Assembly: GCF_013122565.1 (NCBI RefSeq)
Contig: NZ_CP053258.1
From: Escherichia coli
Lineage (GTDB): Bacteria; Pseudomonadota; Gammaproteobacteria; Enterobacterales; Enterobacteriaceae
Direction: 5' to 3' (one strand)
DNA length: 64,000 nt
The notes under the pieces are model-generated. The model was not told the origin of the DNA. It did not search any database and saw only the letters and a list, made by a program, of their open reading frames with translations. Position 1 is the stretch's first letter. Every line of letters starts with the position of its first letter. Of this stretch, positions 27,381 to 58,805 are shown one piece after another. The translations under genes and the position numbers were made by a program.

Positions 27381-27743
27381 TGGTGGAGCTGGCGGGAGTT
27401 GAACCCGCGTCCGAAATTCCTACATCCTCGGTACTACATGCTTAGTCAGTCTTTACATTCGCTTGCCAGCTGCGGACGGACACGCCACTAACAAACTAGC
27501 CTGATTAAGTTTTAACGCTTCAACCCCAGGCAGGGCTTCCACGCGATCTCTTTTGGGTTTGACCTCTCTTGATCCCCGTCCTAAGAGCGGAGGCTAGGGA
27601 GAGAGGGCTCTAAGCAGGTTATTAAGCTGCTAAAGCGTAGTTTTCGTCGTTTGCGACTATTTTTTGCGGCTTTTTACGAGGCCAACCGCCCCTCGGCATG
27701 CACCTTGGGTTTCGCAAATCCCGTCGAATCCAGAATCAGCCCC
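27381..27743 (-). ncRNA. ssrA: tmRNA (SsrA), 363 nt
   Basis: Reverse complement reads GGGGCTGATTCTGGATTCGACGGGATTTGCGAAACCCAAGGTGCATGCCGAGG … and contains the tag reading frame GCAAACGACGAAAACTACGCTTTAGCAGCTTAA (ANDENYALAA*) and the tRNA-like 3' end …GGGTTCAACTCCCGCCAGCTCCACCA. Confidence 0.96.
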
Positions 27744-29389: not shown

Positions 29390-29731
29390 TTAGTTACCAC
29401 TCAGCGCAGGTTTGTTATCAATATTGGTCAACACACCGCTACTGTTAAAGGTCAGCGTCAGCGTTTGCTGCGTTACACCTTCATGACCTGGTTGCTGGCG
29501 GAAGACATAGAACCAGGTATTCGTACCAAATGGATCGGACATCAGCGGTGTACCCAATGCGTACGCAACTTGTTGTTGCGTCATGCCAACACGTATTTTG
29601 GATACGTCGTTAGCGGTCAGATAGTTCCCCTGGTTGATGTCAGGACGGTAAACCACTCGCTCCAGAGTGGAACAGCCTGCGGTCAACATCAATAGTACTG
29701 CTGCTGCAGCAGTCAGCGTTTTACAGCGCAT
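29390..29731 (-). CDS. bamE: Outer-membrane protein assembly factor BamE (SmpA) lipoprotein
   Basis: 113-aa ORF with lipobox LTAGC and BamE-type sequence. Confidence 0.9.
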
Positions 29732-29879: not shown

Positions 29880-31541
29880 TTACGCCGCAAGCAGTTCTTT
29901 CGCATTCGCCAGTGTGTTACGTGTGACTTCGCTGCCACCAAGCAGGCGCGCCAGCTCTTGTAACCGCGCTTTTTTATCCAGGGATTGCATATGCGTTTCT
30001 GTCATCGCACCATCGGTTTCTTTGCTGACAAAATAGTGTTGATGACCACATCCCGCGACTTGTGGCAGGTGGGTAACACACATCACCTGAGTTGATTCGC
30101 CGAGTTGACGCAGCAGTTTGCCGACAACTGCCGCTGTTGGACCGCTAATCCCTACATCCACTTCATCAAAAATCAGTGCCGGGGTTTCCATTTTACGCGC
30201 CGTGATGACCTGAATTGCCAGTGCGATGCGTGACAATTCACCACCGGATGCGACTTTGGCAATAGGCTGCATTGGCTGACCTGGGTTGGTGGTTACCCGA
30301 AACTCAATACGATCGGCACCGTCAGCGCCCAGGTGATGCTCGTCAAATTTAACATCGATCGTAAACTGCCCATGCGGCATTGAGAGTGCATGCATACTGT
30401 CGGTGATCAGCAGTGCAAGTTCTTCTGCATACTGCTGGCGTTGCTGGTGTAATGCGCGCGCGGTTTCCAGTGCCTGCTGATGATGTTTCGTTACCGCCAG
30501 CGCGAGCGTTTCTTGTGAGTCGGCCTGATCGTCCAGTTGCTGCTGTTCTTCCAGTAGCGACTGGTAATACTGTGGCAATGCCTCAGGGCTGACGTGATGT
30601 TTACGTGCCAGCGAAATCTGTTTTGAGATGCGCTGTTCAAGTTCAAACAGTCGGTTGGGATCGAGATCCAGACGATCGCAGTAGTGGCGCAGTTCATCGC
30701 TGGCTTCAGCAATCTGGATGGTAGCTTCTTCCAGCATATCAAGTACGCCGGACAGTTTGCTGTCCATGCCAATCAATTCGCTCACCAGTTGTTTAGCCGT
30801 GTAAAGCTGACTTTGCAGGTTTGCGTCTTCACCGTCGGCCATTAATGCCAATGCATTCTGGCTGGTGGTCAGCAATTGACCGCTGTTCGCCAGACGTTTG
30901 TACTCTTCGTCGATTTGCTCAAACTCTCCGGGCTGCGGATTAAATTCGTTAAGTTCTTTTAATTGGTATTGCAGCAGTTCTGCACGGGCGGCGCGTTCCT
31001 GACTTAACTGTTGATGATGCGCGAGGTCGCGGCAGCTTTGATGCCACAATTGATAACGTGCGGTCATTTCCTGAAGCAGAGAGGTTTCATTGGCATAGCC
31101 ATCAAGCAGGAATTTTTGGTGCTCGGGTTTGGTGAGTAATTGATGAGCGTGCTGACCATGGATCTGAATCAGCAACTGACCCAGTTCGCGCAGTTGTGAC
31201 AGAGGAACAGCTGTACCGTTGATGAAACCACGGGAGCGACCATCACTGCTGATCACGCGACGAAGCAAACATTCATGCCCGTCTTCAAGCTGGTTTTCTT
31301 CCAGCCAGCGCAGGGCCGCTGGCGTATCTTTCAGAGAAAAACGGGCGCACAGGTCAGCGCGAGCAGCGCCGGTACGCACCATGTCGGCTTCAGCGCGACC
31401 ACCGAGACACAGACCGAGGGCATCTATTGCAATAGATTTACCCGCGCCGGTCTCGCCAGTTATTACGGTCATGCCGCTATGAAAATCAATCTCAAGCTCA
31501 CGAACGATAGCAAAGTTGCTGATGGTCAGTTGTGCCAACAT
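29880..31541 (-). CDS. recN: DNA repair protein RecN (SMC-like ATPase)
   Basis: 553-aa ORF; Walker A GETGAGKS near N-terminus; coiled-coil middle; LexA boxes upstream. Confidence 0.95.
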
Positions 31542-31567
31542 AGTTGTTTTCCTGTATGAAAAACCAT

Positions 31568-31609
31568 TACTGTTATTGTGTACAGTATAAACTGGTTTTA
31601 TATACAGTA
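31568..31609. promoter_or_regulatory. Two LexA (SOS) boxes in recN promoter
   Basis: tactgttattgtgtacagta (31568-31587; CTGT-N8-ACAG) and aactggttttatatacagta (31590-31609; CTGG-N8-ACAG), 27-60 bp upstream of the recN start. Confidence 0.75.
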
Positions 31610-31626
31610 AAGAGGCTGGCGTAAAA

Positions 31627-32505
31627 TTAGAATAATTTTTTTGACCAGCCGAGCTTGGTGCTTAATGTGTTGAAATAACTGTAATCTTTCGGATGAATCA
31701 GATTCAGATGGTAATCACAGCGACGAATCAGGACATCTTCACCTTCCTGAATCGGCAGTGCTATCTGGCTGTCGCAACTGATTTCCAGGTCGTTACGGCG
31801 ATGCGAAAAACGCAGACGGATCGTGCTGCTGCTGTTTATGACCAGTGGTCGTGCTGACAACGTATGCGGGAACATGGGCACCAGGGTAATCGCATCCAGA
31901 GAGGGTGTCAGAATAGGACCGCCCGCAGAGAGGGAATAGGCGGTGGAGCCTGTTGGTGTCGAAATAATCAGGCCATCGGAACGCTGAGAAAACGCAAAGA
32001 TCTCGTCGATATACACTTCGAACTCAATCATATGCGCCACTTTGCCTGGATGAAGTACCACTTCATTTATCGCGGTGCTGATGCGCTTTTGGCAATCTTG
32101 CTGACAGACTTGCGCTTCCAGCAAAAAACGTTTTTCGCTGATGTAGTGACCTTCCAGCACATCGGCTAATTGTTGCTGGGCGTTATCGGGGTCAAGGTCA
32201 GTCAGGAAACCCAGGTTGCCACGGTTGATTCCAATAACTTTAATATCGTAGCGTGCGAGCGTGCGCGCCGCGCCCAGCATATTACCGTCGCCGCCAACGA
32301 CTACCGCGAGATCAGCCAGTTGCCCAATCTCCGCGAGCGTGCCAGTTTTCACATTCTTCAGTTGCAGTTCGTGAGCGATTTGTTGCTCAACGATGACCTC
32401 GTAACCTTTTGTGCACAGCCAGCGGTAGAGCATTTCATGTGTTGTCAGTGCAGTAGGGTGCCGTGGGTGTCCCACAATGCCAATACACTTGAAATGATTA
32501 TTCAT
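31627..32505 (-). CDS. nadK: NAD kinase
   Basis: 292-aa ORF with GGDG motif (…[14 protein letters not shown]…). Confidence 0.92.
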
Positions 32506-32594: not shown

Positions 32595-33221
<627 letters not shown>

Positions 33222-53806: not shown

Positions 53807-53882
53807 GTCCCCTTCGTCTAGAGGCCCAGGACACCGCCCTTTCACGGCGGTAACAGGGGTTCGAATCCCCTAGGGGACGCCA
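53807..53882 (+). tRNA. gltW: tRNA-Glu (anticodon UUC) in 16S-23S spacer
   Basis: GTCCCCTTCGTCTAGAGGCCCAGGACACCGCCCTTTCACGGCGGTAACAGGGGTTCGAATCCCCTAGGGGACGCCA; anticodon loop CT-TTC-AC. Confidence 0.95.
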
Positions 53883-57270: not shown

Positions 57271-57506
57271 TCCCACATATGCCAGATTCAGCAGCGAATA
57301 CGGCTTCCCCAACTTGCTCACTTCCATACGTGTCCTCCTTACCAGAAATCTATCGTTAAGCTCCTCAATAACCATTTTCCTGCTAACTAAATTCATGGTT
57401 AAGGTTGCATAATGATACGCAACAAATGTATAACATTTTCTTCACCAAAAGAAATAAACAAAAGCGACCGACAAAAGCATCGGATTACGGCAGGAGACAT
57501 AATGGC

Positions 57507-58805
57507 ATGGCTGAAAGTACTGTAACGGCAGACAGCAAACTGACAAGTAGTGATACTCGTCGCCGCATTTGGGCAATTGTGGGGGCCTCTTCAGGTAATC
57601 TGGTCGAGTGGTTCGATTTCTATGTCTACTCGTTCTGTTCACTCTACTTCGCCCACATCTTCTTCCCTTCCGGGAACACGACGACTCAACTACTACAAAC
57701 AGCAGGTGTTTTTGCTGCGGGATTCCTGATGCGCCCAATAGGCGGTTGGCTATTTGGCCGCATAGCCGATAAACATGGTCGCAAAAAATCGATGCTGCTA
57801 TCGGTGTGTATGATGTGTTTCGGCTCACTGGTAATCGCCTGTTTGCCTGGTTATGAAACAATCGGTACGTGGGCTCCGGCATTATTGCTTCTCGCGCGTT
57901 TATTTCAGGGATTATCCGTTGGCGGAGAATATGGCACCAGCGCCACCTATATGAGTGAAGTTGCCGTTGAAGGGCGCAAAGGTTTTTACGCATCATTTCA
58001 GTATGTGACGTTGATCGGCGGACAACTGCTAGCCCTACTGGTTGTCGTGGTTTTACAACACACCATGGAAGACGCTGCACTCAGAGAGTGGGGATGGCGT
58101 ATTCCTTTCGCGTTAGGAGCTGTGTTAGCTGTTGTGGCGTTGTGGTTACGTCGTCAGTTAGATGAAACTTCGCAACAAGAAACGCGCGCTTTAAAAGAAG
58201 CTGGATCTCTGAAAGGATTATGGCGCAATCGCCGTGCATTCATCATGGTTCTCGGTTTTACCGCTGCGGGCTCCCTTTGTTTCTATACCTTCACCACTTA
58301 TATGCAGAAGTATCTGGTAAACACTGCGGGAATGCATGCCAACGTGGCGAGTGGCATTATGACTGCCGCATTGTTTGTATTTATGCTTATTCAACCACTC
58401 ATTGGCGCGCTGTCGGATAAGATTGGTCGCCGTACCTCAATGTTATGTTTCGGTTCGCTGGCAGCCATTTTTACCGTTCCTATTCTCTCAGCATTGCAAA
58501 ACGTTTCCTCGCCTTATGCCGCTTTTGGTCTGGTGATGTGTGCCCTGCTGATCGTGAGTTTTTATACTTCAATCAGTGGAATACTGAAGGCTGAGATGTT
58601 TCCCGCACAGGTTCGTGCATTAGGTGTTGGTCTGTCATATGCGGTCGCCAATGCTATATTTGGTGGTTCGGCGGAGTACGTAGCGTTGTCGCTGAAATCA
58701 ATAGGAATGGAAACAGCCTTCTTCTGGTATGTGACCTTGATGGCCGTGGTGGCGTTTCTGGTTTCTTTGATGCTACATCGCAAAGGGAAGGGGATGCGTC
58801 TTTAG
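57507..58805 (+). CDS. kgtP: Alpha-ketoglutarate:H+ symporter (MFS)
   Basis: Start at [41 protein letters not shown]… (432 aa); the 466-aa track ORF is N-terminally over-extended. Confidence 0.9.

Follow-up and report, generated by a model that had tools for sequence, protein, structure and literature searches.

Predicted sigma-70 promoter interleaved with LexA operators upstream of recN in Escherichia coli

The spacer that separates nadK from recN is almost certainly the native promoter-operator of E. coli recN, an arrangement in which a sigma-70 promoter is interleaved with LexA operators. The spacer lies in a stretch of 64,000 nucleotides of the E. coli chromosome (hereafter the window, meaning the whole of the DNA that was analyzed), and the LexA boxes in it are referred to here as distal, middle and proximal, according to their distance from the recN start codon. 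LexA binding and the SOS induction of recN are known from the literature; the exact start site, repression by occlusion and any contribution of the third (proximal) site are what we infer.

The regulated gene, recN, occupies 31541..29880 on the minus strand and encodes a protein of 553 aa that matches the NCBIfam model NF008121 ('DNA repair protein RecN') over 553/553 residues with a score of 1068 bits. Its upstream neighbor is nadK (NAD kinase, 292 aa; 32505..31627, minus strand), assigned by NCBIfam NF002893 (567 bits) and by the K-12 annotation, and the genes for GrpE (32628-33221, plus strand) and BamE (29731..29390, minus strand) are found next to nadK and recN, respectively. This is the locus and the gene order (grpE / nadK / recN / bamE) of E. 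coli K-12 recN (b2616; Rostas, Morton, Picksley & Lloyd 1987, Nucleic Acids Res 15:5041), and 401 bp taken around the spacer find a match in 5425 of 5426 complete E. coli genomes, annotated as nadK and recN throughout. The spacer itself (31542-31626, 85 bp, 32% G+C) is bounded by the nadK stop codon (31627-31629) and the recN ATG (31541-31539); in the recN sense it reads ...TTTTACGCCAGCCTCT-TTACTGTATATAAAACCAGTT-TA-TACTGTACACAATAACAGTAATGGTTTTTCATACAGGA-AAACAACT-ATG. Because recN is on the minus strand, 'upstream' of recN means higher plus-strand coordinates. A scan found no terminator near the nadK stop codon, so nadK transcription may continue toward recN by read-through. An inverted repeat, GGCTGG...CCAGCC with a loop of about 25 nt, flanks this stop codon (31614-31650); its first arm is nadK coding sequence and its second arm is variable among species, and we rejected the repeat as an element on the grounds of this unconserved arm and of the scan that returned no terminator. 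Elsewhere in the window are ssrA (tmRNA; tag peptide ANDENYALAA) at 27381-27743 on the minus strand, about 2.1 kb downstream of the recN stop codon, and genes for tRNA-Met and tRNA-Glu (19538-19613 and 53807-53882, both on the plus strand).

A reading made from the sequence only had described two near-consensus SOS boxes 22 bp apart, immediately upstream of recN. Both 20-mers occur exactly on the plus strand, as tactgttattgtgtacagta at 31568-31587 and aactggttttatatacagta at 31590-31609, and both are in the nadK-recN spacer; one correction is needed, in that the gene identified as recN by NF008121 is on the minus strand. In the recN sense they are the middle operator, TACTGTACACAATAACAGTA (31568-31587, minus strand; 17.47 bits, with 0.035 matches expected per 64 kb), and the distal operator, TACTGTATATAAAACCAGTT (31590-31609, minus strand; 24.85 bits, 0.00015 expected per 64 kb). 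Their spacing is 22 bp whether taken start to start or center to center, with the 20-mers 2 bp apart and the 16-bp CTG..CAG cores 6 bp apart. The possible third, weaker box of the same reading can now be placed at 31550-31569 (minus strand), where a proximal, weak operator, TAATGGTTTTTCATACAGGA, scores 13.02 bits (0.38 expected per 64 kb) and overlaps the middle box by 2 bp. The range proposed for the whole element, 31560-31626, therefore holds for the distal and middle boxes, which are inside it, and fails for the third, which is half outside and begins 10 bp beyond. The boxes end 48 bp (distal), 26 bp (middle) and 8 bp (proximal) before the recN ATG; when compared with the recN coding sequence, as had been suggested, the distal and middle boxes both lie outside it. 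The proximal box contains the Shine-Dalgarno sequence AGGA (31553-31550), 8 nt from the ATG.

The LexA consensus that we used for class membership, TACTGTATATATATACAGTA, is the gammaproteobacterial SOS box, CTGT-N8-ACAG with an AT-rich center. The middle box is an exact CTGT-N8-ACAG with perfect TACTGTA/ACAGTA arms, one of only two exact matches in the 64-kb window. The other, TACTGTAACGGCAGACAGCA at 57518-57537, has a GC-rich center, scores 9.07 bits and is inside an open reading frame of 466 aa (57405-58805, plus strand); it is probably not a LexA site, as about 2.3 matches of this strength are expected by chance. The distal box has the form CTGT-N8-CCAG, which occurs also in the published dinI, uvrD and dinB sites (PMC3009722). 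The proximal box is ATGG-N8-ACAG, with a single good arm, and so has the palindrome feature in part only; its right arm, ATACAG, shows no variation and stays in register with the middle box at a distance of 18 bp.

All scores were obtained with a symmetric LexA PWM derived from 17 LexA sites that precede E. coli genes inducible by UV (Table 4 of PMC3009722), with the recN entry excluded to avoid circularity. The three recN boxes are the top three of the 63,981 scored positions in the window (the distal and middle boxes, which were not below threshold in this previously proposed scan, rank first and second), and the search for additional LexA sites in the 64 kb gave 9.07 bits as the best remaining score, which is at chance level. 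The PWM training sites score between 13.4 and 28.4 bits; the distal and middle boxes are within this range, and the proximal box is just under the weakest training site and thus borderline. The probability per position is 2.3e-9 for the distal box and 5.5e-7 for the middle box. The best score in 300 simulated windows was 11.4 bits on average, and it came to 13.0 bits or more in 71 of them. The distal and middle boxes are far beyond chance, and the proximal box is significant only given its location.

The boxes had also been said to overlap the expected promoter, and they do overlap the sole sigma-70-like match in the spacer. This predicted promoter, the only such match in the interval 31400-31800, consists of a -35 hexamer TTTACT (31611-31606, minus strand) followed after 16 bp by a -10 hexamer TATACT (31589-31584, minus strand). 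Both hexamers are invariant in 80/80 relatives, as are the two T's of the -35 hexamer not included in the distal 20-mer and the TA that separates the distal box from the middle box; we placed the promoter inside the operators because the hexamers are invariant, including bases that LexA recognition does not require. Four of the six -35 bases and the entire promoter spacer fall within the distal box; the middle box takes in four of the six -10 bases as well as the predicted start site. From the position of the hexamers, recN transcription is predicted to start near 31577 (no measured recN start site was found in our literature search), which would put the proximal box at about +9 to +28. An alternative promoter picked out by eye, TTTACG (31625-31620) and TATAAA (31602-31597) with 17 bp between them, is less likely, its -35 region being unconserved (pairwise identity of about 0.50).

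Within E. coli, the window and K-12 MG1655 agree at 160 of 161 aligned bases (spacer plus flanks), with the three boxes and both promoter hexamers 100% identical; the sole difference, at 31545 (A here versus G), falls 4 bases ahead of the ATG and in none of the boxes. The exact 85-bp spacer is present in 1752 complete E. coli genomes, and in the majority of complete E. coli genomes the spacer departs from that of the window at about one base. The 62-bp promoter/operator block from the -35 hexamer to the third box (31550-31611) recurs unchanged in 5357 of 5425 complete E. coli genomes.

We extended the comparison to 80 Enterobacteriaceae recN loci (from a scan of species-representative genomes; 83-99% protein identity), applying the same LexA PWM to the 130 bp that precede each ATG. 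The distal and middle boxes are found in all 81 sequences at 48 and 26 bp from the ATG, to within 1 bp (four of the 80 related loci are shifted, with the distal box 47-49 bp from the ATG). The full 48/26/8-bp geometry is present in 70 of the 81; at the proximal position, 71 of the 81 have a score of 8 bits or more, and in most relatives the score there is only 8.7 bits. The mean pairwise identity of the distal box is 0.91, that of the middle box 0.84 and that of the proximal box 0.92. By comparison, the four-fold degenerate sites of recN have 0.46, and the stretch of 15 bp from the nadK stop codon to the distal box (31612-31626), the only rapidly evolving part of the spacer, has 0.50. Within the middle box, pairwise identity over the 80 species is 0.997 in the CTGT/ACAG core versus 0.686 in the central 8 bp, which is the pattern expected of a protein-contact footprint. 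The corresponding values for the distal box are 0.922 (core) and 0.896 (center), the center doubling as promoter spacer; those for the proximal box, 0.963 and 0.918, are without the footprint contrast and are not diagnostic, and its left arm is ATGG in almost all species. Nine loci of the Enterobacter clade carry a fourth weak LexA-like match of 9-11 bits (for example, TTCTGATTTTGCATCCAGCA), located about 71 bp before the recN ATG, where it overlaps the nadK stop codon upstream of the -35 hexamer; this match is absent from E. coli.

LexA control of recN, likewise part of the sequence-only reading, agrees with the published record, in that these boxes are the published recN LexA boxes and strong SOS induction of the gene is reported. 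The recN LexA box sequences given in the PMC6015884 supplement, with a citation of Rostas et al. 1987, equal the distal and middle boxes letter for letter, and the recN LexA box sequence printed in Table 4 of PMC3009722 is identical to that found here. Three SOS boxes at recN are counted in PMC10714372 and in PMC3323433, recN is among the most prominent UV-induced genes (PMC3009722) and serves as an example of a multi-operator SOS promoter (PMC7440846), and mutational information footprints obtained by Reg-Seq contain a repressor site at recN that is lost upon addition of H2O2 (PMC12133099). A chromosomal recN-lacZ fusion was only 2-3-fold derepressed in a lexA deletion, and DnaA was invoked as a co-repressor (PMC6015884).

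The closest parallel outside E. coli is Salmonella enterica recN (STM14_3289; PMC8072944), where three boxes end 8, 26 and 48 bp before the ATG, as here, and where nalidixic acid induces the gene 39-fold (PMC8072944); the S. enterica subsp. arizonae locus in our set has the box layout of the E. coli window as well. The box centers differ between the two organisms (the Salmonella middle box is TACTGTATTTAAATACAGTC), and the Salmonella proximal box starts with TCATGG as opposed to TAATGG here (9.6 versus 12.9 bits). Several LexA sites per promoter are also known from lexA (two boxes) and from colicin genes (two overlapping boxes), and the second lexA operator is reported to add little (PMC7440846). 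The recN promoter differs from these in having three sites. We take the 2-bp overlap of its middle and proximal boxes to resemble that of the overlapping colicin operators, which Lloubes et al. reportedly treated in 1991.

Three other readings of the region deserve consideration. If the palindromes had arisen by chance in an AT-rich intergenic spacer and played no part in regulation, the low G+C content of the spacer and the AT-richness of the LexA consensus would favor their appearance, but even at the spacer's own composition only 1.3e-6 (distal), 1.5e-4 (middle) and 1.3e-3 (proximal) matches are expected in its 66 positions. The boxes are conserved across 80 species and the adjacent 15 bp are not, and the boxes are identical to experimentally studied sites; the PWM ranking, the chance expectations and the cross-species geometry and conservation refute this reading, to which we give next to no credence. 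A different proposal makes DnaA a co-repressor of recN alongside LexA, acting from a DnaA box that overlaps the LexA boxes. It draws on expression of recN-lacZ that was 2-3-fold higher in dnaA(A345S), additively with a lexA deletion, and on a DnaA box said to overlap the recN LexA box (PMC6015884), a claim of co-repression that is repeated in a review (PMC8203912). One-mismatch matches to TTWTNCACA do fall inside the proximal and distal LexA boxes (31555-31563, minus strand, and 31598-31606, plus strand), but such matches occur at chance frequency (130 found in the window versus 118 +/- 12 expected), and the spacer has no exact match to the DnaA box. The recN column of Table S1 in PMC6015884, in the portion of the source available to us, is without a marked DnaA box, and the center of the middle box, where the E. 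coli sequence comes closest to a DnaA box, varies freely among species. We consider DnaA binding here distinctly unlikely, and reject the DnaA box at recN as a candidate, as the spacer offers only these chance-level one-mismatch matches. The sequence lends no support to the published co-repression; such binding would in any case add to LexA control, not replace LexA.

The third reading concerns the proximal box, whose role as a LexA operator is less certain than that of the other two: a location in the 5' untranslated region (UTR) would account for its conservation just as well. That only the distal and middle sites are working operators, and that the third is a chance resemblance kept as recN 5' UTR or ribosome-binding site, perhaps as a hairpin, is a real possibility, if an unlikely one. 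The E. coli score of the third site is under those of all 17 training sites and drops further in most relatives, its left arm is defective in nearly all species (ATGG instead of CTGT), its central 8 bp are conserved like its arms (0.918, as compared with 0.686 in the middle box), the AGGA within it is the Shine-Dalgarno sequence, and the Salmonella third box was missed by FIMO and added by hand by the authors (PMC8072944). The minimum-free-energy fold is moreover a 7-bp hairpin (31564-31558 with 31552-31546), whose pairs can form in 93.5% of cells. Against this, the site is the third best PWM match in 64 kb, at a place where so few matches are expected, its right arm is invariant and in register with the middle box, and the literature counts a third SOS box at recN (PMC8072944, PMC10714372, PMC3323433). 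The hairpin, for its part, did not hold up as a candidate RNA element: no compensatory substitutions were found in 62 distinct sequences, pairing was no better than in shuffled columns, and the folding energy is not unusual (z = -1.64). A bolder variant, in which 31550-31569 is conserved beyond what LexA needs and has a second, undescribed function in the 5' UTR, such as a hairpin that hides the ribosome-binding site, seems to us very unlikely; if true, the hairpin would limit translation of leaky transcripts and so reinforce, at the post-transcriptional level, a control of RecN that is tight already.

In the SOS circuit, LexA dimers on their operators block RNA polymerase until RecA filaments on damaged DNA bring about LexA self-cleavage and thereby derepression. 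Since the promoter is embedded in the distal and middle boxes, LexA most likely represses recN by blocking RNA polymerase. In undamaged cells, LexA dimers would occupy the recN sites and keep RNA polymerase off the promoter, the strong distal operator lying over the -35 hexamer and promoter spacer, the middle operator over the -10 hexamer and start site, and the weak third operator, presumably, over the early transcribed region and the DNA of the ribosome-binding site. Upon DNA damage, RecA filaments would form, LexA would cleave itself, and the sites would be vacated, allowing strong transcription of recN.

The recN SOS operator has already been described, and nothing about it is new here; it is a textbook example of an SOS operator, at a core E. 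coli gene, and of little importance outside annotation. Conservation of the third box should be read with caution, as by itself it is no proof of LexA binding. What the analysis adds is the exact coordinates and strand of all three LexA sites, together with a conservation-based argument for a TTTACT/TATACT promoter embedded in the operators.
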